From an uncultured virus (IMG/VR IMGVR_UViG_3300030090_003678) (taxonomy: Duplodnaviria > Heunggongvirae > Uroviricota > Caudoviricetes): a stretch of DNA of 20,000 nucleotides. The position numbers and the translations under genes were made by a program. The notes beneath the pieces were generated by a model. The model made no database searches, was not told where the DNA came from, and saw only the letters and a list, made by a program, of their open reading frames with translations. The first letter of the stretch is position 1, and each line of letters opens with the position of its first letter. The DNA is taken from positions 56,945 to 76,944 of the IMG/VR virus record IMGVR_UViG_3300030090_003678. One strand, 5' to 3'. This document shows positions 416 to 18,397 of this stretch, piece by piece.

Positions 416-419
416 TCCT
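416..419 (-). promoter_or_regulatory. Shine-Dalgarno-like AGGA overlapping the TAG stop of the giant gene
   Basis: The minus strand reads TAGGATTAAAAAAATG; AGGA is 8 nt upstream of the ATG at 407. Confidence 0.55.
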
Positions 420-3400
420 ATTCGTGTATGTTTACATGCATTATTGAATCGCCATGTGTTCCGTACCTAAGTTCCATATCTTCAAAGTGTGGTCCTAGAT
501 AATGGGTCCAGCATTTTTCTTCGCATTGATGAAAGTTTAATGGACCTCTCTCATTGCAACATATCTGATCGAAACCTAAATAGAAATCCATATTTACTGG
601 TTTATTGCTATTGCCTTGTCTGCAATTATTTACCGGAGGTGGATATCCAATAATAATATCAAATGCTCCTCCATGCCTACTCCAAACTGCTCTCCAGTGA
701 GGATCTGCATATTCATTAAACTTTTCATTTTCTGCTTGTGGAGCATAAATAACTCCTTTAAAGTTTCTAGGAGCTAAACCTATTCCGACTTCGTGACCCA
801 TTAACATAGCTTCTGGAGACGATAATTCTAAGAACTTTTCTTTTTGAGTTATCAAGTTTAATTTTCTATCGTCAGCTGAATTTGCTACAGGTTTTCCAAG
901 ATACTTCACAGTACCCTTTACAATCTTAGTACATTCAGCAGGAGTCCTTACGTTCAAGGTGTTTCCACTACTATCAATACAAACAAATTCATTTATTATT
1001 TGTGTATCAATGGATGCTCCAAGAGTTAATCCTGCTTCTCCACATTCTTTCTTTGTTTTTTGTATAACTGGCCCAATAAACACTCCTGTTGGGCCGCACT
1101 CAGATGCTGTAACGCTTTCGGTTACTTCATTGCCATCAACTAAGTATATACATGTTCCAGCTTGGTCGTCACTAACATCTCTACATTCTTTGTATGGTCG
1201 GATTGATTCACATGAATCGCTCATATCACAAAGCCTAGCCATCTCCAAACTTTCCTGAGAGTCGTCAGGAACATAACTATCATCAGCAGGGAAATAAAAT
1301 GGGAACTGTTGATCCAACGTATTCAAGTCAACACACGTATCAAACACACTTGAATACGTAACATCTCTAACAGAACCGCATGTGTTTATCCACACGCCTT
1401 TTACCCAATCATAACCTCTTGATGTACAGGCAGTTTCGTTATCAATTTCGTAAAGGGTGCAGAAGTGTTGCTCGCAACCAGCTTTCGTGTCTACTTCTGA
1501 TGGAGGATCAGTAACTTCACCATTTGTATCTTCCCATTTAGTACCTTGTGGGAATTCACAACTTCCTAATCTGCTAGCTAGACCTCCTTCAGTTATCTTC
1601 TCTCCTTCTCCAAAGAATCCAGCATCTTTAGTAACCGTCTTTAATTTTTGTGATGGGTCATATTCCCAATCGCTTGCTTTTCCAAATCTAGGAGCTGGTT
1701 TATTTGCTTCAAGATTGCTTCTTAATTGAGATGCGTCATGAACAACCAACTCTAATTCATCATGAAGCGCAAACCTCGTCGCTGCTGTTACTGGCTCCCA
1801 CCAATGCCAGCCATTTTCTTTGCAGTCTTCCTTGTTGTCATATTTTGCATTTTGACAACCACGCTTTCTTACAACATAACTACCATCAGCTGGACCTCTA
1901 GGACATCTCATTTCCCTCTGTTCGTTGCCTGAGTCATCTTCATATTTTATTTCTACGCACTCAAAACATTGTCCTAGAGGGTTAGTTTTACTAGGAGGTT
2001 GACATGGATCTTGCAAATAGAACCCATTAATTTGACAGCCGACAGGACATCCTTCTACAAAGAAATCTTTTGCGTCTCCAGTTTTTTGTCCACCACTAAT
2101 TTCTAATGGTTTTAGATTTAATGGATCTTTGTATTTATACCCATCTTTTTCATCGTTTCGTCTTCCAATTACCCAATCGCCACCAAATATTCTTTCGCAT
2201 AAGAATTTGTCTCCATCCATTCCTAATGGACTTTCTGGGTCTCCAGTGTCTTCATATAATTGAACCCATTCTCCATTAGTTTGAAATTCAGCTAATCCTC
2301 CGGGAGTTACAGGGTTTGGTATTCCTCCAAATCCAACTCTATCACATTCATTTTTATCAGTAATAGGATCGCCATTAGAGTCTGTTATTCCTGTGTTTGT
2401 TGCTACATCTACACAAGCTCCTTCAGAACACTCATTTATGTCCATTCTGCTTACGTTCATGCCATAACGGTCATCAACACAGTATCCCATTCTTGTACCT
2501 TTGCAGGTGGCGGGATAAACTACGCTACCACTAATAACAACTTTTTCTGCATCAGCTAGGTCGTGGTCGTAGTGTGTAGCCACTTCTGTGTGCGAAAAAT
2601 GTGGTATCCAGAGATGTCCATTTCCAACACATGTTGAGTTATTTTTGTATGTATTATTTGTACAGAAGTAATCTTCATCTGAATAGATATTTTCAAATGC
2701 ATTAATCATGACTGGCTCAACTGGCAGTATCTCTGGAATTGGAGTGGTCATTCCTCCACCAGTATCTACCTCTTTGTACCTAAACATTCTATTCAGATTA
2801 TCAACGGTTGGTTTCGGACCAATTCTTCCCGGCTGTGTTATAGAACCAGTTGGATCTGTCCTTAAACTTTCAACATTAGATGGTCCCATAGGAACACCCT
2901 TTGGCCACATTGACATGTGTCTGCTAAGAGAAGAATGTGTCTGGTGATCGACCGGCCATGGATTCAAACCATATGGTTGGGGAAGCTCTAAATTCTGCTT
3001 CATGTTCATATAGTCAAAAGTAGTAGCCGATACTGGATTGCCGTTTTGGGTTCTTGTCCTATCGTAAATTCTAAGATGTCTATTTTTTCTAGGATTTTTT
3101 GTGATTAGCTTCGATACATCAGCAACCCTAATTTCCATATACTGACCGCTTCCACGACCCGCATCTCCATCTTTGTCTGGAATATTATCCCCTCTTGGGA
3201 TATCTGTATAGAGTATAGTTCCTCCAGCAGGTAAATATGGATTCCTTGATTTATTACTTCTGGAATAACTGCCAAATGTATCCGTTTCTGCTTGTTGTAA
3301 TTCTGCTAATCCAATACCAATCGGTGTGCCTTTTTCATAAGCGCAATGTCTGCCCCCAAACGTAGGTGGATAAGCAGGTATAACTAAAGTAGCCTCTCCT

Positions 3401-6400
3401 GTTTCTGGATCAACATCTTTAACATACCGAACGGTAAATTGCTCTGCTGGCTTGTTTGGAATTGGGTCAAATCCATACGATTGACATCTGTGACTTATAT
3501 CGCCACCAGTAGAACAAGCAACACCGCCGCTCCACAAAGGAGCGCGAATTGGTGGACTTCCTCCGCCTGTTCTGAAGGGGTAGTCTATTCCAGTGTATGT
3601 ACAACATTCCGTATCAACACATGCCCCACTTGGGCCACAATCATTTTTGGATATACATCTTCCAGCAAAAGTATATCTTCTTTCTAACGCACTAGGCTTT
3701 CCTGTTTTTCTCCAAGAGTCTCCGGTAATCAACCGTTTTGGTAAACATCCAATTAACCCTCCAGTATCGCAAGGTGGCACTCCCGTTACGCCATCAGTTA
3801 CGTTGTCAACCCTTAGACTCTCAGACCCCAAAAAAGATGTAAATGTACAATTTGTTATTTCTGCCCAAATTTCTAAACCATTTTGTCTATAGTTGTCTCC
3901 TCCATTAGGTCCAAACCCACCATCAACTATATCACCACTGTTATAAGCCGCCATTGAAGGTATAGAATTTCCACAGCCCATTACTAATCTAATAAAGTGA
4001 CCATCTTGTGGCAGACTAGGAGGTCTTGCATTTCTGAATACTAGGTCTGAACTTAGGCCATCTACTCGCACTCCGCCATTCATTCCTCCATATTGAGGCA
4101 TATCACAAGCGTTGCAGTCGGCATTTATTGCTACTAACTCATCTCCTGCTTTGAATGACGTATAGGGGCTAAAGTCTAAATTTGGTCCAGTTGGTTGGCA
4201 AGCTGAAGGCCATTTGAATCTATGCAAGCCTAAATCACATTGATGTGTACCAACTGTGTTCATTAAAGTCCACTCAGATCTCCAAACAACGCCATCATAT
4301 TCCATAGGGACATCTAAAGACTGTAATCCCGGACAAGTTTCATCTACAGGTTCATGGCTATTTGTATGGTCAACACAAGTTTCATCTGCCTCTGTTTGTA
4401 TATGGAGACCATAACATCCTGTATATGCATCATTATCATATCCTTCATCTCCATTTCCATTAACGTGACAAGTACCATCTCCAATGTCTTCAACGACTTC
4501 GGGTTCATATTTCATCTCAACAAAATTTGGATAACAAGAGCAAGGATCAAATGCCCAAATATATGCAGACTCAGGTGCATCTGAAACTTTAGTACATGTC
4601 GCTGTCAATGCTGAAGTGATCTGAACTACTTCCCCTACATTTTGGTCACCACAATTTTTCTCTTCTATCCCTGAACATGATTTTGCTTCTTTACATGGCA
4701 AATATGGATGTGAACAATTTCCTATAATATCGTTGTTATTGTCAGACACTAACGCTTCACAATAGGCATCTGCACAACAATCAGTTTCTTTGCCGTCTTT
4801 GTCTACTCCTATGTATTGTACTTGTGTGTTTCCTGTTTGACTAACAGTCTTCGTTTTGGATCGAGAGGTATAAACTGATGAACATTTTCTACAATTAGTT
4901 CCCCCACCCATGGTAGGTCTTTTTCTTAAAAACATATTACACTCAGAAACACCACCAGAGTGCGTTAAAGGAGTAAACGTTTCATCTTTACCATCACAAC
5001 CCTTTTTCCTCCATTTGAGGGTTTTAATCCGTCCACCATCTTCTGTGCATGTTCCAAATGTAATGTCAACATTATTTGGGTCTGCTATATGTCTTCTGAA
5101 CTCATCTTCGCATTCTGGCAAATCTCTAAGATCGCAAGGATGAAAAGTATCAGAACAACAATAACCTTCATTTTTTAATGCTTTTGCCGCATTGAAACTT
5201 TGGCTATCATCAGCAGTAGGAGCTTCACATTCATCCATGCCGCAGCCAATATAGTCTAATATCTCGCTAGATTGGCCAGTAACAGTTGCAACTAACTTGT
5301 TTGGCATAAAGTGGTCACAGCAAACAGGACATATTCCTTTTTGTTCTATTTGAACATAGTAATCATTTGCTCTTTCTTCCCATTTATATCCCGGACCGCC
5401 GAAACCAAATCTATATAGACTATCTATTTCATCATCTTCGTAATGTCCAATATACCCACCTTCAACACCAATATCTTCGTGATGTCCCCAATAATCAAAC
5501 TCTCCGGTGAATGGACATGTTTTATAAACACCAACACTCGGTTTTCCTTTACCTGAAGTAAGTTCACTACCAAGATCCAGTATGCCTAAATCGCCATACC
5601 AAGCTTGCGACCAACATGTCTTGAAAGGATCGTCATTATTTAAATCAACACAATCTGCATATCTTCCTTCAATAAACGTAGCGCCTTTAAACTCAAATCC
5701 ACTTTCTTCACAATCGGATTTGTTGTTTATTCCACCAACTACATCGCCATCGTAGTCATAACATTTTCCTTTACTTTCACATGCCTCTTTTTGTTCTTCT
5801 GTAGTTCCAGAATGAAGATCTTTGTCATTTAAAAGTTTTGCGTCAGCATCTTGACATCTATTAACATAAAGCTGGTTTTTGTGGTCTACATCAACGCTAG
5901 GGTCGTACATGGTATATACTTGCGCGAGTGCATCACAATCTTCTTTTTTCATAAATGCATTGGCGTTTGACTCGTATCCTAGCACTACAGTACAAGTACC
6001 ATATAAAGCACAATTTATTTCTGCTTCATTATCTGCGGTCTTTTCGTCATCTTCAAAAGTGTCATAGTTTCTCCAAGAAGTCGTCCATCTCTCAGCAAAG
6101 TCCGTACAGTCTGCTTTACTTTTTGGATTTCCGTTTTCGTCTAATGCACCAGTTTTATCTATGGTGTTAAAACATATACCAAGAGCATCACAATCTGCTT
6201 CCGCACAAGCCTTTCCTCCATCAGATTGCGTTTTATAACAAGTATGTTCTTCGTCTATTGGAGCGCCTGAAGCTTCACTATTTGTTATGGTATCGCCTGT
6301 TGGAATATGAGTAGACTTTCCATTATTTTGGAATGAGAGCTTGCCGGTATATGTATCTAAACAACGAAATTGTGCAGGTTCTTGAGATGGTATTCCCTTA

Positions 6401-9400
6401 TTTTCTGCCAGCTTTTTAGTGATCCAATTGACTTGTTCAGGCGCTTCTGCTGCACCCATACCAAGTCGATAGTTCATAATACAACCTTCTTCAACTTCCT
6501 CTACACATTCAGTTGTATCAATATTTGCTTTGTTTATTATCCTTCCATCTACTGGATACTTGTCGCATGTATATAAGTCGAATGTGTCTAATGTTACATT
6601 TTTAATAACAAAGAAGTCAGCTGGTGGAGGAATTTCACCATTAATTATTTCACCGGAACAAGCGTAGTATTTACTATCGCAACTGAGTTCCCATGTACCT
6701 CCGCCGCCTTCCCATACTCCACCACATCCCGGAGGGCCATCTGCATCATCTTTTACACAACCACACTCTTCTCCCGGAGCTTTATCTTGATCAACAGTAA
6801 ATCCTGAAGGACAGTTCCCATCATCATCCTGCATCTTGCATATATCGGCATCAGCTTCGCAATCAGTCTTTCTGTCACATACTGTTCCATCTTCTCTTTT
6901 CTTTGAACATTTTCCATACTCACACTCTAACTTACTTCCTGCATCAGTTGATGCGTCCCATTTATAAACAGGTCCAAGACAGTCCTTTTTCTCTAGATCA
7001 ACTTCTGAGTCGTCAGACAGTCTAATACATTTGCCTTGAGAATCGTCTAGGCAAGCAGACGTATACGGACATATAGAATCTGGCCATACTAAGTTTTCAC
7101 AATTTGGTCCGTCGCACGGGCTGTAAAGTTTATCTTCCCATTGCATCTCTTGCCAATCCTTCTGGTACATAACATTGGCAGCAAAATTGCCCATGACATT
7201 GTAGGTATGTACCAAGTCTCCATCTTTTAGCAAATGGTTCCTTGAAGTAATTTTGATTGGTTTTTCGTTGCTGGCATATTGGATTCGTTTGTGTTGCTTG
7301 ATTCCTAAGCAGTGGTCATTGACATAGCTAGCCATTTCTCCCTTTGGGAATAGACCAGTATCGTGCCAGTAACTCATTGAGTTGCCGATATCGTTTCCTT
7401 CTGATCCAAGAATTCTTCTTGAATATCCTCCTCCTACTTTGTCACTAAAACCTTTCTTTATACTACTTGTATCAACAAGTCCACTTGTTGAAGGTCCAGA
7501 AGGTCTGGCTTTAATGATTCCTTCCAGCTCTCTTAGCGGATAGCTTGAATCAGAACCTCCAACGCTAGCACCAGTCCAAGTATTATCCCCATCTCTACCG
7601 TTACAAGCTTCTTCTGTCTCATAATCTTGGATTAATGTACCGTCTTCTAGCAGACATTGACCTAGCTTTTTCCCTAATACGATATCTACGAAAGCTTCAG
7701 GTACTGGTTGAACTTGAGGACATTCTTGGTTTTCTGCAAGAGCAATGCCTGCTGGAGAACATCCGTCATTCCAATTTCCTTCAGCCCCTCCTTCATCCAT
7801 AGGCTTTACGCACTCTGCTTCGGTTTTTGCCTCTTCCCATATGGGAGTAGCTTGTTTTTCTACAACATCTTTGAAGTTTACTAGCTTTCTGCGATCACAT
7901 CCTTCAAACCATTCACAACAAATGTTGAAGTCTCCTCCTGAAGCTGCGCAATCTTCTGGCGTAGCGTGTTCAAAACTTCCATCAGCTGCAACACAAGAGC
8001 CTGTTTTTCCACAACTTGCTTTAGTTTGCTCTTCACATTCAGGGCAAGAAAGGTTATTCGTCCAGCCATCGAATGGAACCCAACCAACCCACATAGCACC
8101 ATTACCATAGCCGCAATCACCTCTTCTCAAGAAACCCACATGATCATCAACATATTTTTTAGCTTTTGTGGCTACTTCATTACAAAAGCCATCATATTTT
8201 TTTACTGCGATAGGACCCGGACCTGTAGTCATTTCATCCCATGCCATGAAATCATAATACATGAAATAATCTGGACCATAATTCCAGAACCAAGTACCAC
8301 CACCAGCCATATGCCCTAATACATAAGCAGTACATGCTTGCCAATATTTATGATGTGCAGCAGCTTGATCAGGGCCTTTAGCTCTATTTTGTTTTTCTTC
8401 CGTCGCTTTGAATGGTTGAGGTTGTATGTTGAACCCATAGAATGCATCAGCTCCTTTGGCATTCATCAACTCGCCAAAGTATTCTCCTTTGTTACTATTG
8501 TAGTAATGATACGCTTGACATTGATCCTTACCACCATCCGCAATACCATCATAGTTTGCATCAGGATAGGCGCACCAATGCTGATGTTGTATGCCTTCTA
8601 TAGCATCTCCCGGAAAATATCCTATTGGGCCTTTCATCGCAAGCGGAGGAGCAGATCCACCAGCGCCTTTTTGAAAAAGCTCATTTACTGGGTTGCCCAT
8701 TTGGTCTCCCATTTTAGGGTCCCACAAAGGCTGAGATTCTGGCCAACCAGAACGAAGCTGAGATTCTTTTCCGAGAGTTAGATTAAAGTTAGAACAATTC
8801 ATAAACTGATCTACAGGCAAAAAGAGCATCACCTCTTCTCCACATGTAGTATCAAAATAATTGTCTTGTTGTCCCTTTATATCGTATGGGTCTGGTCTAG
8901 GAACACCTTTTTCTAAGCAAGCACCCCAAAAGTTACAGGGACGTATTGTAAGAGTCCAATAGCTTTCACCATCTAAATGGAATAGAACTCTATCATTTTG
9001 GTTTCCTACTGATGTGCAAGTACCTTCTGCGCCAGTTTGCGGAGCGTTGCTTCCAGTAATAGTAGAAGGCGAAAGAATCACCTCTGAATAAGGAGTTATA
9101 CAAACAGTATTTTTTCTTGTGTTTGCTGCTCCACCAGATATTTGCGGAGTGTGAAAAGGATGATCTTCATCTAATAAAGTTTGTCCACAACAAGACTGGC
9201 GTTCATATTCCCAATCAACAAAATCGTAAGGAATGAAAACATTTGGATGCTTCCAAATCCTTTCGTCGATTTCAAGACATTCTTCTTCTGTAGCAACATC
9301 TCCTTCCCAAACATCGCCAAACGCACCACTATAACAACCAGCGTATACTTCTTCCCCAGAATAAAGAACACAATTTTCTTGAGTTTCATAATGCCAATCA

Positions 9401-10692
9401 TGAGTGTGGTGAAATCTAACTTCACAATCATATTGATTTAATGCGGGAAACTTTGTAGGAGTCCCATTGCTTGTTGTTGGTCTCTTAAGACATGCTGGTT
9501 CTATGAGCTGATCTCTAACTGTAGGCTCACCATCTTTAGGAGAATAACAAAGACCTCTTAAGGTACATTCTTCTTTATCATCAAGAAGCCAAGTTGCACC
9601 AGAACTTTCACAAGTAGATTCATCTTTATCAGGGTTAGTACAAAAGGCTTCAACTTCAGTAGCATCAAATGGATGTCTACACCAAGGCTCTTTCTTTAAA
9701 GGTACAGCCCCATCTTCAAAGCAAGCGCTTTCTTTATTTGCTCCAGATCCATGGACTGCATTGTAAGAGCTATGAGCATAATACCCTTCAGGAGTAACGA
9801 ATATTCTACGTTCTCTTGCTTTTATATTTATTAGTGCGTCAGCTTTATTTTCAGAGAAGTGTGTTTTTTGTAGGTTTGTCCCTTTTAGGTCTACTAATCT
9901 TTGTCCAGCTCTGTCTTCTACATTGTTATTTGTGACATTTGGATCATTCTCACTCCAAAGACCATTTATATCTATACAGTCGTCTTCTGTAGTTATCCCA
10001 TAATTAGGGACTCCATTTACATCCCAGCAAATAGGTCTTTCTCCATCTCTGACGGATGAATTCAGCATGTCTGTTCCGCCACCGGGAAGCATTACGCCAT
10101 AGACTTCTGGTATCATCCAAGCATCAGCACCTCTTCTAGGCCAGTTATCTCCTTGTAGCGCTTTGTCGTAATCGAAATCATCTCTTACTTGAAATCCATC
10201 TCCTACTTGTTTATCAGAATCAAGTGTCACATATTTATTGTTTGCGTAATGGCACTCAGAAGGTTTGCCATTAGGAAGAGTAGTTACCTTACATGGATCA
10301 CAAGCATAACTTAATGTATCAGTCGCTGTTTGACTACAACATCTGCTACCTCTCCAAGCGCCATTAGAATATTTAAGATGGTAGGTTTCTCCTGCTCCAC
10401 CTTCTATTCCTGCACGAGCTTGATATCTTCCATCAGGAGTTCTAATAATAGTAACAGCTATTTCTGGAGGTAGCTGACATTTTGCTCCAGCTAGGTTGTC
10501 GCAATAAGTGTCTATACAGCCACAGCCCTCAGTGCAAAAACGACCGCCTCTCCTATCTTTCAAAGATAGAGGGTCGTCCTGAGCTGTATCATCAGAAGCG
10601 TCTGGCCACCAAGATTTCTTGCCAGTTCTTTGATTTCTTAGGTTTGGATAATAGGGATTATAGGAGGAATCCCAAGGATCACCAATTGCCAT
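418..10692 (-). CDS. Giant (3424 aa) cysteine-rich, acidic putative virion appendage/tail-fibre-like protein with two interrupted E1-FCCH-like domains and many nested two-Cys modules
   Basis: 10.3-kb uninterrupted ORF. The ATG overlaps the upstream TAA (TAATG, 10690-10694), with AGGA 5 nt upstream; TAG stop at 418-420. No signal peptide or obvious TM segment. Lies downstream of the hub-like gene. The ORF is secure; the product is inferred. Confidence 0.9.
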   Translation of the reverse strand: MAIGDPWDSSYNPYYPNLRNQRTGKKSWWPDASDDTAQDDPLSLKDRRGGRFCTEGCGCIDTYCDNLAGAKCQLPPEIAVTIIRTPDGRYQARAGIEGGAGETYHLKYSNGAWRGSRCCSQTATDTLSYACDPCKVTTLPNGKPSECHYANNKYVTLDSDKQVGDGFQVRDDFDYDKALQGDNWPRRGADAWMIPEVYGVMLPGGGTDMLNSSVRDGERPICWDVNGVPNYGITTEDDCIDINGLWSENDPNVTNNNVEDRAGQRLVDLKGTNLQKTHFSENKADALINIKARERRIFVTPEGYYAHSSYNAVHGSGANKESACFEDGAVPLKKEPWCRHPFDATEVEAFCTNPDKDESTCESSGATWLLDDKEECTLRGLCYSPKDGEPTVRDQLIEPACLKRPTTSNGTPTKFPALNQYDCEVRFHHTHDWHYETQENCVLYSGEEVYAGCYSGAFGDVWEGDVATEEECLEIDERIWKHPNVFIPYDFVDWEYERQSCCGQTLLDEDHPFHTPQISGGAANTRKNTVCITPYSEVILSPSTITGSNAPQTGAEGTCTSVGNQNDRVLFHLDGESYWTLTIRPCNFWGACLEKGVPRPDPYDIKGQQDNYFDTTCGEEVMLFLPVDQFMNCSNFNLTLGKESQLRSGWPESQPLWDPKMGDQMGNPVNELFQKGAGGSAPPLAMKGPIGYFPGDAIEGIQHQHWCAYPDANYDGIADGGKDQCQAYHYYNSNKGEYFGELMNAKGADAFYGFNIQPQPFKATEEKQNRAKGPDQAAAHHKYWQACTAYVLGHMAGGGTWFWNYGPDYFMYYDFMAWDEMTTGPGPIAVKKYDGFCNEVATKAKKYVDDHVGFLRRGDCGYGNGAMWVGWVPFDGWTNNLSCPECEEQTKASCGKTGSCVAADGSFEHATPEDCAASGGDFNICCEWFEGCDRRKLVNFKDVVEKQATPIWEEAKTEAECVKPMDEGGAEGNWNDGCSPAGIALAENQECPQVQPVPEAFVDIVLGKKLGQCLLEDGTLIQDYETEEACNGRDGDNTWTGASVGGSDSSYPLRELEGIIKARPSGPSTSGLVDTSSIKKGFSDKVGGGYSRRILGSEGNDIGNSMSYWHDTGLFPKGEMASYVNDHCLGIKQHKRIQYASNEKPIKITSRNHLLKDGDLVHTYNVMGNFAANVMYQKDWQEMQWEDKLYSPCDGPNCENLVWPDSICPYTSACLDDSQGKCIRLSDDSEVDLEKKDCLGPVYKWDASTDAGSKLECEYGKCSKKREDGTVCDRKTDCEADADICKMQDDDGNCPSGFTVDQDKAPGEECGCVKDDADGPPGCGGVWEGGGGTWELSCDSKYYACSGEIINGEIPPPADFFVIKNVTLDTFDLYTCDKYPVDGRIINKANIDTTECVEEVEEGCIMNYRLGMGAAEAPEQVNWITKKLAENKGIPSQEPAQFRCLDTYTGKLSFQNNGKSTHIPTGDTITNSEASGAPIDEEHTCYKTQSDGGKACAEADCDALGICFNTIDKTGALDENGNPKSKADCTDFAERWTTSWRNYDTFEDDEKTADNEAEINCALYGTCTVVLGYESNANAFMKKEDCDALAQVYTMYDPSVDVDHKNQLYVNRCQDADAKLLNDKDLHSGTTEEQKEACESKGKCYDYDGDVVGGINNKSDCEESGFEFKGATFIEGRYADCVDLNNDDPFKTCWSQAWYGDLGILDLGSELTSGKGKPSVGVYKTCPFTGEFDYWGHHEDIGVEGGYIGHYEDDEIDSLYRFGFGGPGYKWEERANDYYVQIEQKGICPVCCDHFMPNKLVATVTGQSSEILDYIGCGMDECEAPTADDSQSFNAAKALKNEGYCCSDTFHPCDLRDLPECEDEFRRHIADPNNVDITFGTCTEDGGRIKTLKWRKKGCDGKDETFTPLTHSGGVSECNMFLRKRPTMGGGTNCRKCSSVYTSRSKTKTVSQTGNTQVQYIGVDKDGKETDCCADAYCEALVSDNNNDIIGNCSHPYLPCKEAKSCSGIEEKNCGDQNVGEVVQITSALTATCTKVSDAPESAYIWAFDPCSCYPNFVEMKYEPEVVEDIGDGTCHVNGNGDEGYDNDAYTGCYGLHIQTEADETCVDHTNSHEPVDETCPGLQSLDVPMEYDGVVWRSEWTLMNTVGTHQCDLGLHRFKWPSACQPTGPNLDFSPYTSFKAGDELVAINADCNACDMPQYGGMNGGVRVDGLSSDLVFRNARPPSLPQDGHFIRLVMGCGNSIPSMAAYNSGDIVDGGFGPNGGDNYRQNGLEIWAEITNCTFTSFLGSESLRVDNVTDGVTGVPPCDTGGLIGCLPKRLITGDSWRKTGKPSALERRYTFAGRCISKNDCGPSGACVDTECCTYTGIDYPFRTGGGSPPIRAPLWSGGVACSTGGDISHRCQSYGFDPIPNKPAEQFTVRYVKDVDPETGEATLVIPAYPPTFGGRHCAYEKGTPIGIGLAELQQAETDTFGSYSRSNKSRNPYLPAGGTILYTDIPRGDNIPDKDGDAGRGSGQYMEIRVADVSKLITKNPRKNRHLRIYDRTRTQNGNPVSATTFDYMNMKQNLELPQPYGLNPWPVDHQTHSSLSRHMSMWPKGVPMGPSNVESLRTDPTGSITQPGRIGPKPTVDNLNRMFRYKEVDTGGGMTTPIPEILPVEPVMINAFENIYSDEDYFCTNNTYKNNSTCVGNGHLWIPHFSHTEVATHYDHDLADAEKVVISGSVVYPATCKGTRMGYCVDDRYGMNVSRMDINECSEGACVDVATNTGITDSNGDPITDKNECDRVGFGGIPNPVTPGGLAEFQTNGEWVQLYEDTGDPESPLGMDGDKFLCERIFGGDWVIGRRNDEKDGYKYKDPLNLKPLEISGGQKTGDAKDFFVEGCPVGCQINGFYLQDPCQPPSKTNPLGQCFECVEIKYEDDSGNEQREMRCPRGPADGSYVVRKRGCQNAKYDNKEDCKENGWHWWEPVTAATRFALHDELELVVHDASQLRSNLEANKPAPRFGKASDWEYDPSQKLKTVTKDAGFFGEGEKITEGGLASRLGSCEFPQGTKWEDTNGEVTDPPSEVDTKAGCEQHFCTLYEIDNETACTSRGYDWVKGVWINTCGSVRDVTYSSVFDTCVDLNTLDQQFPFYFPADDSYVPDDSQESLEMARLCDMSDSCESIRPYKECRDVSDDQAGTCIYLVDGNEVTESVTASECGPTGVFIGPVIQKTKKECGEAGLTLGASIDTQIINEFVCIDSSGNTLNVRTPAECTKIVKGTVKYLGKPVANSADDRKLNLITQKEKFLELSSPEAMLMGHEVGIGLAPRNFKGVIYAPQAENEKFNEYADPHWRAVWSRHGGAFDIIIGYPPPVNNCRQGNSNKPVNMDFYLGFDQICCNERGPLNFHQCEEKCWTHYLGPHFEDMELRYGTHGDSIMHVNIHE
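1765..2706 (-). other. E1-FCCH-like beta domain 2, split by three Cys-rich insertions
   Basis: The segments INAFEN / HTEVATHYDHDLADAEKVVISGS / ADGSYVVRK / VTAATRFAL occur in canonical order, separated by inserts at 2667-2608, about 2514-1897 and 1860-1801. Confidence 0.55.
6571..7284 (-). other. E1-FCCH-like beta domain 1, split by a 185-aa Cys-rich insertion
   Basis: The N-half IQYASNEKPIKITSRNHLLKDGDLVHTYNVMGNFAAN (7284-7174) and C-half DFFVIKNVTLDTFDLY (6618-6571) join into the familiar I..ASN..PI.IT...HGL..GD.V.I..V.GN..ANG.F.I..VT.DTF.L pattern of FCCH-like domains (Pfam E1_FCCH-like) in phage proteins. Confidence 0.7.
6958..7035 (-). repeat. 26-codon module, copy A (GKCIRLSDDSEVDLEKKDCLGPVYKW) in the 3424-aa gene
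   Basis: Ungapped 18/26 aa and 54/78 nt identity (hand count) to 15857-15934. Confidence 0.85.
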
Positions 10693-12517: not shown

Positions 12518-15500
12518 TTAATCTTTCTGGTATTGACCTATTCCTCTTTTGACTCTTTCCATTTGCTCTTCTGCTCTAGAAAGTCTTTGCATTATGTCTG
12601 ACTGTGACTTTCTTATTCTGTCTTCATAAAGCTTTCCTAAGTCTCCGAACTTTCTTTGGGTAGAGAAGCTATAGCTAGTTGTCAATCCGTTACTTCCAAC
12701 TCTCAAACTCACATCAGTAATATAAGGACCTTTAATTTCCTCTCCACTACTGTCGAAATAAGTCAGTTGTGTTCCAAATGCATAAGCTGGTATTCCAACT
12801 AGTTCAATAGAACCTGTTTCTATAACTCTATTTTCGCTTTGGCCAATAACTGTTTCTATTCTAGACATTGCCACATCTCCCATTTGAGTTTCTCCACCAA
12901 ATGCGGCTGGGTGTAATCCATCGTCAGTAGAAAATTCAGTTTTTCCATATGCTTCAAGTCCAGCAGCCCAAGGACCCCATCTATAGTGTTTGCTTTGTTG
13001 TGGTATAGCAGCGTGCCAAGGTTTATATGCAGCAGCAACAAAAGAGCCTTTTCCCATATCAGGGCCTAAGTTAGGCGCATACTTGCTTCTAGCTTGCATA
13101 GCTATCAGTTGTTGTGCTGTAACTCCTTGAGGTAATAAACCATTCAACCAAGCCCCTAATAAGAAGTTTGAGTTTCCTCCTTTAGTAAGAGGAAGACACA
13201 TTTCATTTTTATTACCTCCGCAAGAATTCATTAATGGATGAGCCATATCAATATCTGGATAAAATGCTCGATTTGCTAGAGTCACTAGTGCATAAGGTTT
13301 ATATGCAGCAAATTCATTGGTCTGCTCACTACCTGTGTTATCTATCTCGTTTTCTCTGATATATACAGGACGCGTTTTTAATTCTGTTTGTGTACCATCA
13401 ATTTCACTGCCTATTTTTAAATACTCTTCGGATGCGGCATGGTCGATGCTACTTCCATCTACCTTAGCGTCATCTCCACATCTATAACGGAAATATTGCT
13501 CTTCATGATGAATCTCCCAGTCTGGTCTTTCTTTTAGCCAGTGTGTTTTTGCATCAACTTCAGCAGCCACAAATACCTTTTTTCCCCAATTATCATCAGG
13601 GCCAACTTTGCTTACAGGTTCTACATGCATGGTTTCTGCATCAAAATCTCTGAAGTCTAATATCTTAGAGTCTTGTGTTGCTCGCCTATAATCTTTTTCT
13701 GGGAATATAACAAAGGACTTTAGATTTCCTTCTTCCGTCCAGAAATTCATATTCTGAGGATATCCAGTATTGGCATTTTTAGAGTCTGGTGTACCAAAGT
13801 TAAACTCAATATCTCCACCGGGCCAAGCTCCATTAGTTGCTATTTCCCATCTGTTAATTTCCTGTATTGGTTCGATCCATTTTTCTCTAGCAATTATTTC
13901 GCATGTGTATTTGTCTGGACTCACTCCATCAGTACAGCGACCAATGCCTTGTTTAGCAAACCATTCACTTAATAAACCATGGACACCCCAATCGAATCCA
14001 GCATCTTCACATTGAGTTTGATCCTCGTATTTGGGATTTGTGCAATGTACTGTAGAAGGTGGATTAAAAGGTAAAGGCACTAGATACTTCTTGCCATAGA
14101 AGTTGTCTGCAACATCTTTTATCTTTTTATAAACCATCTCAATTTCCATTGACGTTGCTTGGAACAATGTCAAAGAAGTTGTTCTTGGCTTATCTCCACA
14201 AACAAAACCAGAAATGCTTTGCGCCTCTTCAGTGTCGGCATTGCTTTCGTCAGTAATACCAGTAGAAGCCATCGGTGGAGGACTTGAGTTACCCCAAGCA
14301 ACTAATACTTTTGCTGCTTCAAGAGTTGTTTGACTTTTACCTCCATGAATTACTACTTCATCTTTAGCTGGACATAAGTCACCCCAAGCATTTGATGGCT
14401 CAGGTGTTTTTTCATAAAACCAACAAGGCATGTATGGCTGTAGGGTTTTTACAAAAATCTTCCAAGAATCTATACTCTGAGCTGCATGTCTGAGTTCAGT
14501 CACAGTTGCATAATAAAACTCATCATATCTTTTTGCAGGGTCATTTATAGAAGATTTAGGGCCTCCTTTATATGGAGTATTCCCTAAATCAATAGGTATA
14601 GTTGACGTTCTACATACAAGAGGAAGGCCAATACCAGTATTCAAATCGACTGGCTTGTAATGCACTTCGTTTTGGCTACCGCCATTATCTTGATCGTAAC
14701 AGTCTCTTTCTGTTTCTATGTCCTCATTGTTTGGTGGATCTTTTGGGTCTTGTTTTTCTCCATCACTATCACGAACTTGCCTACACACACCCTTTAGCCT
14801 AATTCTAGGTTGTGTATATCCGGGAGCTGGATTGTCTTTTGACTCAATTACCCTACCAGTAAAGTCATCAGTAAACTGAGGGCCATAATCAAAAGTGCTA
14901 ACAAGCGTCCACTCTGCTTTTCCGGGATATTTTGTTTTGCAATCTCTTGGTGTAGCAGCATCAGTCCAATCGCCTTTATGAAATAAAACCTTTCCTTTAT
15001 CGTTTTCTATGTCTTCAGTGGCTTCACACCTACTATCAAATGGATTTCTATATGATACCGCTTTACATCCGGGACTATATAAACTTCCTCCACTTTCAAA
15101 TTGGTTCATATCTGCTGGATCAAATCCAGAAGGAAGAGCATCTCCATTAGCATCTATTTCAAAGGAAGATCTAGCTTCAGGAGTTGCAAGAAGATTTCCA
15201 CTGTCTGTACAGTCTGCTGGACTTCCAACGAACTTAATAAACCCACTTTCAGTGTTAACTTCCCATTTAGGATCATTGAATGTAGCAGCTTCTCCAGCTT
15301 TCTTTTCAAACCCTCCTTCTTTGAAGTCTTTCGCATAGTAGGCTACTATAGCACTTCCTTGAGGGTCTCCGTTTCCGTCTTCTGCAAAACAAGCGTGTTG
15401 ACAAGCCCATGCATTTTCACCAACATTATTTTCAGGACCAACAATATCTTCATGCATCTTAGAAGATATATCTACATTGTTCTTATCTCTACACGCACCC

Positions 15501-18397
15501 CAATTGATACACCAAGGTCGCCATTTATATTGTTTCAGATCCCCAGCTTTCTTTACGGCGCAGTCGGAGTCTGGTGGATTTACTTCTGGTCTAGGATCAC
15601 ATTCGCAAATAAACTTTAAGTTTTCATAATCTTCATTAGCTTGTCCTGTAGCTAATTCCTCACAGATTCCTAAAGACGGATTAAAAAACTCAATCCCACT
15701 AAAAATACCTTCAGTAGGGTGAAAGTCTCTATAAGGATCATCATCATTGAAAAATCCCTTGATTGGATTTCCTCTAACGCTTAGATCAACAATGTCGTTA
15801 TAAACATTGTCTGCTGCAATTGACTGAGGATCTGCTGGAGTCCAACTCCCTACAACCCATTTGTAAGTAGGACCAAGACAACTGTCTTTTTCTACGTCTA
15901 CTACTGAGTCATCGGCAGTCTTGATACATTTTCCATTTTCTTCTTTTTCACATTCCTCTTGTGTCTTAAGACCTCCCTCAGAACATGAACCTTGTGCAAC
16001 AGCACCACCTTTAACAAGCTCTATGGTTTCATATCCCCAGCATGGATATAGATCTAGATAGCCTGAGTCTGTGGAGTGTTTTTTTGTCCAAATTCCAGAT
16101 GCGTCAAGGCATAGTTTCTCAGTATCAGGATACTCCCAATTACCTCCTTTATCTGCGCATTCTGTAGCATTAGTTGGTCCAGCTACAACTTCTGGATCTT
16201 TTTTTGGAGGGCTAATTTTTAAACATGCTTTTACATCACAATCACCTGCATTAAGCTGATGCTTTGAGTTGAGTCTATTTAACTGATAGGGATTAAATCC
16301 ACCATCTTGTTTGAAATCTTGTGGCCAATACCAAGGCAAATAATTATCATTGCTTACAGGAGGCAAATTTCTTTCAAAGTCTGGGTAGTCTAGCGTCTCT
16401 TTGTCCGAGTATATTCCTTGTTTTCCATAAGGATTCCATCTCAACTTATTACTGTCTGAAGGAAACTCATCTTTAGGGAATTCTTGATTTATAAGAGTAA
16501 CGCCATCATCTTCAACGTGTGGCAAGAACTCTGTTAAAATCGAGTCTACTCCTTCTGTTGGTGCTGGATCTTCATCAGTTACATCTTCAGTTGTCCAGAC
16601 ATGATTTGCTTGAGCTTCGCAATCAGCTTTATTTGTATAGGAAGGAGCCTTATCTCCATTACCATCTACACAATAAGATTCAGTGTTTGTTTTATCAAAA
16701 TACTTTCCAGTAGTTTGATTGTAGAAAGTATCTTTTCTTACATTGACATCTCCTAAAGGTGTAACACCAATGACTCTTGTTCTAGGCGCACCAAGGACCA
16801 TCTTGCCTTCAATAGGATCTGTAAATTCATAACCTAAGTTGGCACTTACTAAAGTTGGGTTATTTTGATTATCTACAAAAGGCCCTTCTGGAGGTGTCTT
16901 TTGTGACAGATCAACTGCATCCCCAATAGAACCACGAGTGATTGTTGTCGTTCTTGGGATAGGAACAACTTTTATGATTCCAGAATAATTTTTAACATCC
17001 GGCCATTCTTCAGGTTCAATAAACCCATCTTTGATTAGATTTTTGGTTATAGGGCTTAATGTTACATAAAAATCAGCTCCTACAACCGCGCAAGCTTCTT
17101 CTATTAAAGATAAAAGGCTTGCTGTATCTCCAGAGATTCTCCAATCATTTGGTATCAAACCTTCTTCGTCTCCTGAAGACGAAGATGAACTAGAACTTGC
17201 TATATCTGAAGACTTAGAACTGAACTTAAAAAAATCAGTTAGGTCAACTAGATATCTATGTATATGCCAGCTTTCTGGATTGCCATCTTCATCTAATTTT
17301 ACTGCGCCTGCTTCGTCTTTTATAGATGCGGAGTTTAATATGCTTTGAGATGGATTTACATTTCTAGTGTCTCTGCTGTAGTGTAAGGGTCCGCCAAATG
17401 GTTCAAATTCTTCAATGTAATTCGTGTCTTTGCCACTTAACATATTTGCAAGTGCGCCCAAAATACCAAAAGCATGTTTTCTTTTTGGTGCTTGCTTATC
17501 TTCGTCAAGACTTGGGTTGTAATCTCCAAACTTGTTAATGAATTGTTTATTTGGATTATTCCAAATCATTCCGGCTTCTGTAATATCAGATTTGTTAAAC
17601 CCGTGATATTCGTAGTACCCAAACACATTTATTATGTTGTAATACCCATTCCATCCTTTTTCGTATTCTCTTCCTGAATCTTCGATTCTATACGCATCAG
17701 CAGGAGATGTTCTTGCAGCAAATTTGTTAAGTACAACGATTGTATTTTCGAGTATTGATCTTGGGTCTGCAATTTCTACCGTGTAGGTTTCTCCAGCAGT
17801 TGAAAACTTTTTATCGTACTTTGTTAAAATTCCCGGAAAAGAGAACACAGTGTTACAAGTAAGAGCGCCATCTTTTAAGACTCCATCATCATCATAATCT
17901 CTTTTTACGCAGTCTTGTATTAAGTCTCTTCCGCTGTAGTAATTAAAAAAGACAGGAGATCCCGGATCAGGAATAAAAGGAATGTCTCCATGAGTGGAGT
18001 AGAGTTTTCCCATTCCTTTATCTGGATCTGATGGGTTGTCTTCGTTCTCTAGATTGTGCAATCTTAAAAGATCAATAGGAAACGCATTAGGATCATTAGG
18101 GTGATAACCTTCAGAAACGGCATCTCTAGTACCAGAGGGAGTTAAGTAAGTTTCAAAATTAACTTCGTCTCTTACTAAATTAACGCTAAGACTAGAACTG
18201 TTACTACCCAAGCCTAAATTTGCAGAAAAATCCATAATCGACAAACCTAAGAAAGTTTGCTGAAAGATTTCTGGATTATTAACATAGTCAGTTATTGCTG
18301 AGGCGTATTTGTCCCAAGACCCACCATTAGCTGTACAATCAGCCTCATTTTTATACTGAGGTTTGCTACATTTATTTACATCTTTATTAGGAGCCAT
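12518..18397 (-). CDS. Large (1959 aa) putative baseplate hub / tail-tip protein expanded by Cys-module insertions
   Basis: Long ORF, TAATG-coupled to the upstream gene, ending in a double stop TAA TAG. The N-terminal beta pattern (SIMDFSANLGLGSNSSSLSVNLV...FPGILTKYDKKFSTAGETYTVEIADPRSIL), the helical SLLSLIEEACAVVGADFYV and the C-terminal TGSIELVGIPAYAFGTQL...YITDVSLRVGSNGLTTSYSF resemble the layout of gp27/GpD/Tal-type hub proteins. It ends in a coiled-coil-like tail. The family call is by-eye pattern recognition. Confidence 0.85.
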   Translation of the reverse strand: MAPNKDVNKCSKPQYKNEADCTANGGSWDKYASAITDYVNNPEIFQQTFLGLSIMDFSANLGLGSNSSSLSVNLVRDEVNFETYLTPSGTRDAVSEGYHPNDPNAFPIDLLRLHNLENEDNPSDPDKGMGKLYSTHGDIPFIPDPGSPVFFNYYSGRDLIQDCVKRDYDDDGVLKDGALTCNTVFSFPGILTKYDKKFSTAGETYTVEIADPRSILENTIVVLNKFAARTSPADAYRIEDSGREYEKGWNGYYNIINVFGYYEYHGFNKSDITEAGMIWNNPNKQFINKFGDYNPSLDEDKQAPKRKHAFGILGALANMLSGKDTNYIEEFEPFGGPLHYSRDTRNVNPSQSILNSASIKDEAGAVKLDEDGNPESWHIHRYLVDLTDFFKFSSKSSDIASSSSSSSSGDEEGLIPNDWRISGDTASLLSLIEEACAVVGADFYVTLSPITKNLIKDGFIEPEEWPDVKNYSGIIKVVPIPRTTTITRGSIGDAVDLSQKTPPEGPFVDNQNNPTLVSANLGYEFTDPIEGKMVLGAPRTRVIGVTPLGDVNVRKDTFYNQTTGKYFDKTNTESYCVDGNGDKAPSYTNKADCEAQANHVWTTEDVTDEDPAPTEGVDSILTEFLPHVEDDGVTLINQEFPKDEFPSDSNKLRWNPYGKQGIYSDKETLDYPDFERNLPPVSNDNYLPWYWPQDFKQDGGFNPYQLNRLNSKHQLNAGDCDVKACLKISPPKKDPEVVAGPTNATECADKGGNWEYPDTEKLCLDASGIWTKKHSTDSGYLDLYPCWGYETIELVKGGAVAQGSCSEGGLKTQEECEKEENGKCIKTADDSVVDVEKDSCLGPTYKWVVGSWTPADPQSIAADNVYNDIVDLSVRGNPIKGFFNDDDPYRDFHPTEGIFSGIEFFNPSLGICEELATGQANEDYENLKFICECDPRPEVNPPDSDCAVKKAGDLKQYKWRPWCINWGACRDKNNVDISSKMHEDIVGPENNVGENAWACQHACFAEDGNGDPQGSAIVAYYAKDFKEGGFEKKAGEAATFNDPKWEVNTESGFIKFVGSPADCTDSGNLLATPEARSSFEIDANGDALPSGFDPADMNQFESGGSLYSPGCKAVSYRNPFDSRCEATEDIENDKGKVLFHKGDWTDAATPRDCKTKYPGKAEWTLVSTFDYGPQFTDDFTGRVIESKDNPAPGYTQPRIRLKGVCRQVRDSDGEKQDPKDPPNNEDIETERDCYDQDNGGSQNEVHYKPVDLNTGIGLPLVCRTSTIPIDLGNTPYKGGPKSSINDPAKRYDEFYYATVTELRHAAQSIDSWKIFVKTLQPYMPCWFYEKTPEPSNAWGDLCPAKDEVVIHGGKSQTTLEAAKVLVAWGNSSPPPMASTGITDESNADTEEAQSISGFVCGDKPRTTSLTLFQATSMEIEMVYKKIKDVADNFYGKKYLVPLPFNPPSTVHCTNPKYEDQTQCEDAGFDWGVHGLLSEWFAKQGIGRCTDGVSPDKYTCEIIAREKWIEPIQEINRWEIATNGAWPGGDIEFNFGTPDSKNANTGYPQNMNFWTEEGNLKSFVIFPEKDYRRATQDSKILDFRDFDAETMHVEPVSKVGPDDNWGKKVFVAAEVDAKTHWLKERPDWEIHHEEQYFRYRCGDDAKVDGSSIDHAASEEYLKIGSEIDGTQTELKTRPVYIRENEIDNTGSEQTNEFAAYKPYALVTLANRAFYPDIDMAHPLMNSCGGNKNEMCLPLTKGGNSNFLLGAWLNGLLPQGVTAQQLIAMQARSKYAPNLGPDMGKGSFVAAAYKPWHAAIPQQSKHYRWGPWAAGLEAYGKTEFSTDDGLHPAAFGGETQMGDVAMSRIETVIGQSENRVIETGSIELVGIPAYAFGTQLTYFDSSGEEIKGPYITDVSLRVGSNGLTTSYSFSTQRKFGDLGKLYEDRIRKSQSDIMQRLSRAEEQMERVKRGIGQYQKD
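15857..15934 (-). repeat. 26-codon module, copy B (GKCIKTADDSVVDVEKDSCLGPTYKW) in the 1959-aa gene
   Basis: Ungapped 18/26 aa and 54/78 nt identity (hand count) to 6958-7035. Confidence 0.85.
17174..17197 (-). repeat. Poly-serine (S8) low-complexity tract in the 1959-aa protein
   Basis: ...SSKSSDIASSSSSSSSGDEEG..., encoded by mixed AGT/TCT/TCA/TCG codons. Confidence 0.8.

Follow-up and report, generated by a model that had tools for sequence, protein, structure and literature searches.

The giant gene and its nested segment

The window analyzed here is a stretch of 20,000 nucleotides that forms the final 20 kb of a viral genome record of 76,944 bases (IMG/VR record IMGVR_UViG_3300030090_003678, positions 56,945 to 76,944), the completeness of which was estimated by CheckV to be about 51%. 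Its minus strand encodes a giant protein of 3424 amino acids, here called P0001, which is rich in cysteine (Cys, 4.8%) and also contains 2.0% tryptophan (Trp). Our subject is a segment of this protein in which three small Cys-containing layers lie inside one another. A preliminary description, made from the sequence alone, had proposed, inside a loop of what it labelled in its own terms FCCH-like domain 2, three concentric layers in which three openers are matched by three closers in last-in-first-out order. The 113-amino-acid peptide quoted there is the translation of window positions 2173-2511 on the minus strand, corresponding to residues 2728-2840 of the 3424-amino-acid open reading frame (ORF), and the aromatic closers F2803, W2809, and W2840 follow one another in the order that was claimed. 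The Cys residues of the nest are located at positions 2730, 2738, 2755, 2760, 2783, and 2832. The middle layer is placed in the loop between the first and the second Cys of the outer layer (the Cys1-Cys2 loop), and the inner layer in the loop between the second Cys and the Trp of the middle layer (the Cys2-Trp loop). The nest starts 35 residues past W2695, the last residue of a copy of the repeated mini-module described below, and lies inside a conserved strand-rich stretch. The gene and the parts of the nest are as follows:

418..10692, minus strand: gene for the 3424-amino-acid Cys-rich giant protein P0001, which contains the nest (ORF list and translation)
2488..2511, minus strand: outer layer, opener, residues 2728-2735 (ATCKGTRM) with C2730; this Cys is invariant (C91 of alignment A1)
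2422..2487, minus strand: middle layer, opener, residues 2736-2757 (GYC...DINECSE) with C2738 and C2755; missing in homologues P0031 and P0032
2284..2421, minus strand: inner layer, residues 2758-2803 (GACVD...GLAEF) with C2760, C2783, and the closer F2803; missing in 8 distinct homologues with four Cys
2266..2283, minus strand: middle layer, closer, residues 2804-2809 (QTNGEW) with W2809; this Trp is nearly invariant (W170 of A1)
2173..2265, minus strand: outer layer, closer, residues 2810-2840 (VQLYED...GDKFLCERIFGGDW) with C2832 and W2840

The six Cys and two Trp of the segment are conserved through the family (alignment A1). In the middle layer, the motif [DN]-I-N-E-C is nearly invariant (N114 and C116 of A1), and in the query it reads DINEC (residues 2751-2755, window positions 2428-2442, minus strand). 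Pairwise identities among the versions with six Cys were 0.55-0.56 in the core, 0.57 in the outer layer, 0.51 in the middle layer, and 0.35, the lowest value, in the inner layer. At the level of the alignment, this inward decrease would fit a projection with a youngest or least constrained tip.

Layer-sized differences among homologous sequences

The site was recovered from 62 sources (proteins and loci), which yielded 43 distinct sequences, of which 41 were complete. With the Cys residues counted from the first one, the 41 complete distinct versions were distributed as follows:

2 Cys: 2 versions
4 Cys: 8 versions
6 Cys: 23 versions
7 Cys: 2 versions
8 Cys: 6 versions

In 39 of the 41 versions, the counts step through 2, 4, 6, and 8. 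It was also noted that the sequences with seven Cys (P0011, L029, L033) contained their extra Cys 6 residues ahead of the outer closing Cys (DEDCDGDETLC).

The two-Cys forms, P0032 (GSC-x19-C-EDVYGGTW) and P0031 (ATC-x37-C-EESLGGKW), contain the outer pair alone, with the middle as well as the inner layer missing from both. Four Cys were found in P0021, P0022, P0025, P0028, L014-L016, L041, and L042, which represent 8 distinct versions because L016 is identical to P0028 at the site. The sequences of P0025, P0028/L016, and P0021/L015 consist of the outer and middle layers, ATCKGSRMG[YC...NINECTEQNGKW]VQV...DKTLCEAFGGKW. The four-Cys joint NINECTE/QNGKW in P0025, P0028, and L016 coincides with the boundary that the preliminary description had drawn in the query, NECSE/GAC...AEF/QTNGEW, and without the inner unit the flanks meet as NECTEQNGKW, which gives the canonical C-x6-W spacing of the mini-module. 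This spacing, with Gly at +4/+5, is contiguous for the middle layer in the four-Cys homologues only, and the inner layer closes with Phe past a variable linker. In P0022, L014, L041, and L042, the inner-unit joint is occupied by a Cys-free expansion of 7-8 residues.

The inner unit is carried by the query and by 22 other distinct six-Cys versions. Among the eight-Cys forms, P0018 contains a canonical C-x10-C-x6-W unit, CNKPAYNTKVTCEDNGGRW, inside the inner layer, which scored 24.7 bits against the profile of the mini-module, whereas the middle loop of the P0008/P0009 group contains an additional C-x6-C or C-x8-C. In the truncated P0024, additional units occupy the closing loop of the inner layer. 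Module-sized insertions and deletions, which the preliminary description had named as a check, are thus present among the homologues, and they fall at the predicted joints.

Predicted structure of the layers

Two AlphaFold2 models were obtained, one for residues 2640-2920 (281 amino acids, 21 aligned sequences) with a predicted local distance difference test score (pLDDT) of 73.8 and a predicted template modeling score (pTM) of 0.63, and one for the isolated segment of 128 residues (a thinner alignment of 10 rows of other origin, with 40-odd sequences available) with a pLDDT of 70.8 and a pTM of 0.48. The 10-residue blocks that contain the layer elements in model 1 averaged 85-91 in pLDDT, and the linkers 61-71. 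The elements in model 1 (E, strand; H, helix) were:

Canonical upstream unit: strand E24-38 (C38), helix H46-51 (C49), return strand E56-67 (W56)
Outer layer: E89-92 (C91), H190-196 (C193), E200-203 (W201)
Middle layer: E97-100 (C99), H113-117 (C116), E169-172 (W170)
Inner layer: E119-123 (C121), H141-148 (C144), E162-166 (F164)

The outer opener corresponded to strand E9-16 in model 2, and both models gave the order strand(C)-strand(C)-helix(C)-strand(C)-helix(C)-strand(F)-strand(W)-helix(C)-strand(W). All three layers were accordingly predicted with the strand (Cys1)-helix (Cys2)-strand (Trp) plan of the canonical mini-module, with Phe as the closing residue of the inner layer. The structure prediction that the preliminary description had asked for thus bore out its last-in-first-out arrangement, with a strand-helix-strand in every layer of both models.

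The Cys residues are inferred to form the concentric disulfides C2730-C2832, C2738-C2755, and C2760-C2783, as read from the homologue sequences: the two-Cys forms allow only the pairing of the first with the sixth Cys, the four-Cys forms then add the pairing of the second with the third, and the six-Cys forms that of the fourth with the fifth. A different use of the Cys residues, as metal ligands in a cluster of zinc-knuckle-like sites, was suggested by the best Foldseek rows for the isolated segment, which were tandem C2H2 zinc fingers at a non-significant E value of 1.5, and by the reducing cytoplasm in which phage proteins are made. However, spacings of 10-100 residues separate the Cys, CxxC knuckles are absent, the segment has no conserved His, and the minimal homologues contain two Cys, with further Cys added in twos rather than in fours. 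Because of the two-Cys minimal form, one disulfide per layer fits better than a four-ligand metal site, and we consider the metal-binding alternative highly improbable.

No known domain was recognized in the segment. A hmmscan of stretches of 131 and 281 amino acids against Pfam (E ≤ 10) returned no family, EGF and EGF_CA included, the best match of a profile search of PDB sequences had an E value of 0.21, and no usable match was obtained in the ESM Atlas. The best Foldseek matches in the PDB were non-significant also for model 1 (E value of 2.2), and the best Z scores in the wide VIA-align search were 2.7 for model 1 and 2.5 for model 2. A match to a single known Cys-rich domain, which would have spoken against the nest, was therefore found neither in the sequence nor in the profile or fold searches, although a fold without matches is not thereby shown to be new.

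A repeated mini-module that appears to nest in itself

The mini-module has the strict form C-x10-C-x6-W, with a consensus of roughly C-[QTS]-x3-Y-x-[NT]-K-x-D-C-E-x2-G-x2-W. Of 17 proteins scanned with a regular expression for this form, 15 contained it, with 31 copies in total and 3 in the query. The looser form C-x8..18-C-x6..7-W was found 170 times in 21 giant homologues, compared to 29.4 ± 5.3 (maximum 46) in 200 shuffles. A module profile was built on 24 copies from the giant-protein family only, all of them outside the region of the nest segment, and it also matched the neighboring giant gene. The canonical copies in the window are:

2608..2664, minus strand: canonical mini-module upstream of the nest, C2677-x10-C2688-x6-W2695 (strict regular expression; 32.2 bits)
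1801..1857, minus strand: canonical mini-module C2946-x10-C2957-x6-W2964 (regular expression; 30.1 bits)
1405..1461, minus strand: canonical mini-module C3078-x10-C3089-x6-W3096 (regular expression; 23.0 bits)
12518..18397, minus strand: neighboring ORF of 1959 amino acids with at least two canonical mini-modules (profile matches of 21.7 and 21.1 bits)

Since the 1959-amino-acid ORF, an independent gene with no family match, matches the profile twice, the mini-module is common to two adjacent giant genes. It is a previously unannotated unit, present in these two genes and in about 40 related sequences.

Nesting was also found outside the segment. Among the 21 giants, 18 nests with a unit in the Cys1-Cys2 loop of another (type A) were counted, compared to a mean of 0.12 (maximum 1) in 200 shuffles, and 5 nests with a unit in the Cys2-Trp loop (type B), compared to 0.21 (maximum 2). 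Examples of modules within modules beyond the query were found in P0006, P0011, and P0018, and the upstream module (C2677-W2695) hosts extra nested units in P0012/L010, P0031, and P0032. Alignment of 18 giants over their full length gave 156 lineage-specific inserted peptides of at least 12 amino acids, 22 of which contained a complete C..C..W unit.

A long-type unit, CT[VI]GNPDTQxxITDxxxCxxxGGxW, occurred at no fewer than 6 non-homologous positions in different lineages. Its copies in P0012 (residue 3510) and P0016 (residue 2322) were identical at 18 of 25 residues (72%), with an identity of 40% for the whole proteins; the copy in P0012/L010 is nested within the upstream module, and its counterpart in P0016 is located at a non-homologous position. 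A degenerate DNA pattern for CT[VI]GNPDTQ identified 1 stretch only across IMG/VR, and the inserted unit was matched only once when the record of this stretch, a fragment, was searched for further copies. Taken together, the inserted peptides, the nest patterns, and the similar long-type units favor the view that the insertion of ready-made units may be a live process in the family.

The preliminary pattern itself is loose, with any residue before Cys as an opener and any aromatic residue as a closer in a Cys- and Trp-rich protein, and the segment as a whole scored as low as -3.9 bits against the module profile. Both observations would be expected if the nest were a chance pattern with no modular meaning. 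That explanation is difficult to reconcile with the conservation of the six Cys and two Trp, with layer-sized insertions and deletions at the predicted joints, with the shuffled counts of 0.12 and 0.21 nests against the 18 and 5 observed, and with the raw homologue sequences, which ruled out an alignment artefact; we regard it as the least credible of the alternatives. At the sequence level, the nest is lifted above chance by the joint-exact absence of layers in homologues, the stepwise Cys counts, and a frequency of nesting far above that of the shuffles.

Proposed insertion history of the nest

A phylogeny was inferred from 181 columns outside the nest. The two-Cys pair, P0031 and P0032, formed one clade (support 100/99) on a long branch, on which the midpoint root was placed. 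The four-Cys forms also formed one clade (99/96), whereas the six-Cys forms were an unresolved polytomy. P0018 was nested in the clade of P0015 and P0017 (97/99), and since the extra unit was present in P0018 only, with none in its sisters P0015 and P0017, it represents a gain. For the inner layer, gain and loss require one event each, because the four-Cys clade stands among the six-Cys polytomy.

The preliminary description had inferred at least three successive insertions at a locus that was itself within an insertion. The middle and inner layers are separable, and further gains have occurred at the locus in P0018, P0008/P0009, and P0024, which supports repeated insertion; this support does not extend to an insertion of the outer layer or to the polarity of the inner one. 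The suggestion that the locus lies within an insertion was not borne out, as the outer layer was present in all 41 complete versions. In summary, the nest is real, two of its three layers are confirmed as separable, and the insertion history is partly supported.

A number of observations weigh against a history in which every layer is an inserted copy of the module. Besides the negative score of the whole segment, the excised layers of the query and the inner layer in place scored at most 0.7 bits against the module profile, and the middle layers of natural two-layer forms scored 3.8-6.5 bits and the outer layer of P0032 0.5 bits, as compared to the 24.7 bits of the insert in P0018. The outer closer of the query is C-x7-W and scored less than 4 bits; the orthologous outer closers scored 7.7 bits in P0025 and 4.4 bits in P0018, and shuffled P0001 sequences gave 0.01 matches of at least 4 bits per shuffle. 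No module-length DNA repeats were found in the giant gene, just short matches of about 70-80% from the ...EEC motif, and no palindrome or target duplication linking the modules at the DNA level was seen in the window. Four of these results, the weak scores, the C-x7-W closer, the Cys-free expansions, and the lack of a DNA repeat, count against each layer being a copy of the module. In addition, the two versions with seven Cys depart from the even steps as the sole odd counts, the numbers of type A and type B nests are inflated by orthologous positions, a loss of the inner layer would be as parsimonious on this tree as a gain, and the presence of the outer layer in 41 of 41 versions gives no sign that it was itself inserted.

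Some of these observations would also be explained by a single ancient Cys-rich domain with plastic loops, which have either grown in place or been trimmed and have gained Cys pairs on the way, such that the likeness to the module is convergent or superficial. The weak scores of the middle and inner layers fit this explanation, as do the equal standing of gain and loss in the tree, the varying length of the linker in the inner closing loop, and the additions in the P0008/P0009 group, which are not full modules. The Cys-free expansions of 7-8 residues at the same site in P0022, L014, L041, and L042 fit a gradual growth of the loop as well. However, gradual growth does not readily explain why the joints of the missing layers restore the canonical C-x6-W closer, nor why the predicted strand-helix-strand plan of the layers is also that of the upstream canonical unit. 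Moreover, bona fide canonical units have been inserted at the locus in P0018 and in the neighboring module in P0012/L010, and nesting elsewhere in the family is far above the shuffles. We therefore consider an origin from plastic loops unlikely, while giving it more weight than the metal-binding and chance explanations.

The giant-protein family and the source genome

Sixteen giant homologues were 38-98% identical across residues 2560-3000. The family appears to be small, because an exhaustive HMMER search with these residues of the query gave only 15 proteins at E ≤ 0.001. No match was obtained for 2999 amino acids of the giant protein by tblastn against 50,697 phage records, the 5 ORFs of the window had no family matches in Pfam (E ≤ 0.1) or PHROGs (E ≤ 0.01), and NCBIfam gave noise only for the same 5 ORFs.

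The C-terminal half of a Peptidase_M23 domain, with an HLHF motif, was identified in the middle of the homologues P0012 (E = 7e-10), P0014 (E = 1e-9), and P0022 (E = 1.2e-5), although the match in P0022, 25.9 bits, was below the Pfam cutoff of 28.7 bits. In all three, this half follows ...TCDKxPVDGRI..., and the query aligns to them only until ...PVDGRIINKANID (residue 1392), without the subsequent part:

About 6517-6831, minus strand: region aligned upstream of the M23 half (residues 1288-1392; homologue alignment)

P0001 lacks the Peptidase_M23 C-terminal half and its HxH motif, and a Pfam scan of P0001 gave no match. The M23 half is a domain-sized difference among the members of the family. 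Its presence in some homologues hints at a cell-wall-facing role for these proteins, as far as sequence matches can indicate, with the query lacking that part.

The source of the record is a large bacteriophage without a close cultured relative. The rest of the record contains genes for ribonucleotide reductase, dUTPase, PhoH, a RecA-like protein, a DnaB-like helicase, primase, a DnaE-type polymerase (in 2 ORFs), a single-stranded DNA-binding protein, a sigma-70-like factor, 2 thioredoxins, ClpP, and many glycosyltransferases. A DnaE-like fragment had relatives of at most 35% identity in the search of phage records. The DnaE-type polymerase is split into an ORF with the PHP and NTPase parts (L003:15498-17408) and an ORF with the finger domain (L004:25-1611), which correspond to positions 34498-36408 and 38025-39611 of the record (G000), with genes for an RNase T-like exonuclease and a TylF-like methyltransferase between them. 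Genes for glycosyltransferases and sugar-nucleotide epimerases/dehydratases are unusually many from L002 to L004 (G000 5421-7653 and 40498-48201), and the same regions contain a SET-domain gene, ClpP, a PAP2 phosphatase, DUF1501, and an M19 dipeptidase. Two adjoining thioredoxin-like genes (L002/G000 16394-16993) lie upstream of those for ribonucleotide reductase, at a distance of about 3 kb. Because they adjoin these genes, their products are more simply explained as the reductants of ribonucleotide reductase, which they probably are, although a part in the handling of the Cys-rich giant proteins is also conceivable. A role as helpers of disulfide formation was considered and dropped, as the proximity to the ribonucleotide reductase genes suggests a simpler one.

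A model for the growth of the nest

We propose, with a probability of about 0.7, that small Cys-paired units form a nest of three layers in the segment, and that this nest protrudes from a conserved core, rich in strands, of a giant phage protein. Each layer would be stapled by its own disulfide. The two strands of a unit would pair and bring its ends side by side, so that the in-frame insertion of a unit into a loop could leave the host undisturbed, and both loops of a unit would accept guest units. According to this model, the nest was built through successive in-frame insertions, and the process would be ongoing in the relatives, in which it may have reached four or more layers. The giant protein is probably virion-associated, and a structural role as a stapled projection is likely, in which case the projection would be rigid and stabilized by oxidation, with the innermost layer at the tip free to vary.

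A more far-reaching proposal, which we regard as doubtful, is that the C...C-x6-W unit is a self-nesting copy-and-insert cassette. Such a cassette would be a disulfide-stapled strand-helix-strand of 20-27 residues whose copies enter giant virion genes in frame, both within a gene and from one gene to another, with a preference for the loops of copies already present. It would thereby build projections at least four layers deep, in which variability is highest at the newest, innermost tips, which might act in host recognition. If true, recursive self-insertion of a mini-domain would represent a mode by which proteins grow and diversify. Provided that the disulfides are concentric and that the layers fold autonomously, the unit would also serve as a natural scaffold with two loops open to insertions, a property relevant to the design of mini-proteins, and the family would become a test case for the way in which giant phage proteins without recognizable domains are built up.

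Comparison with known systems

The DINEC motif of the middle layer resembles the opening motif of calcium-binding EGF domains, D-x-D/N-E-C. The phage segment differs from these domains in the number and spacing of its Cys residues and gave no match to EGF or EGF_CA in Pfam. The Asn of the middle layer may simply cap a helix, because the motif starts helix H113-117 in the models.

The layers are reminiscent of small disulfide-rich mini-proteins, natural or designed, of the EEHE/EHEE type, with which they share a size of about 20-45 residues, strands with one helix, and an apparent disulfide. A designed mini-protein, 5ji4, was the sole structural row obtained for the inner layer alone, with a Z score of 2.0 and a root mean square deviation of 2.9 over 37 aligned residues, which is no evidence of a relationship. 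However, mini-proteins usually contain 2-4 disulfides and are free-standing, whereas the phage unit, with a single Cys pair and its conserved Trp, is part of a chain of 3424 amino acids.

Rickettsia palindromic elements are short mobile insertions that are located in frame in coding genes. The long-type unit is similar to these in being a short in-frame cassette at many non-homologous positions, but it shows no visible DNA repeat, palindrome, or target duplication, and its spread is so far limited to this family and the neighboring gene.

Full-text literature searches gave no report on the giant-protein family or on self-nesting Cys modules, and the integrins were the sole nested example. In integrin beta subunits, the beta-I domain lies inside the hybrid domain, itself located inside the PSI domain (PMC10137042). 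The likeness consists in three levels of domains within domains, each in a loop of its host (PMC10137042). The three folds of the integrin nest, however, are unrelated, span 50-240 residues, and keep a fixed arrangement, whereas the phage nest consists of units of 20-50 residues that follow one repeated plan, with a depth that varies from 1 to at least 4 and with the same unit nesting elsewhere. The insertion of domains within domains is already known, in rare and fixed arrangements of unrelated domains. What appears to be new here, going by the literature searches, is that one very small unit seems to nest in itself and that intermediates of several depths have survived; since depths of 1, 2, 3, and 4 are found in related phages, the successive stages in which a protein grows through recursive insertion may be followed.

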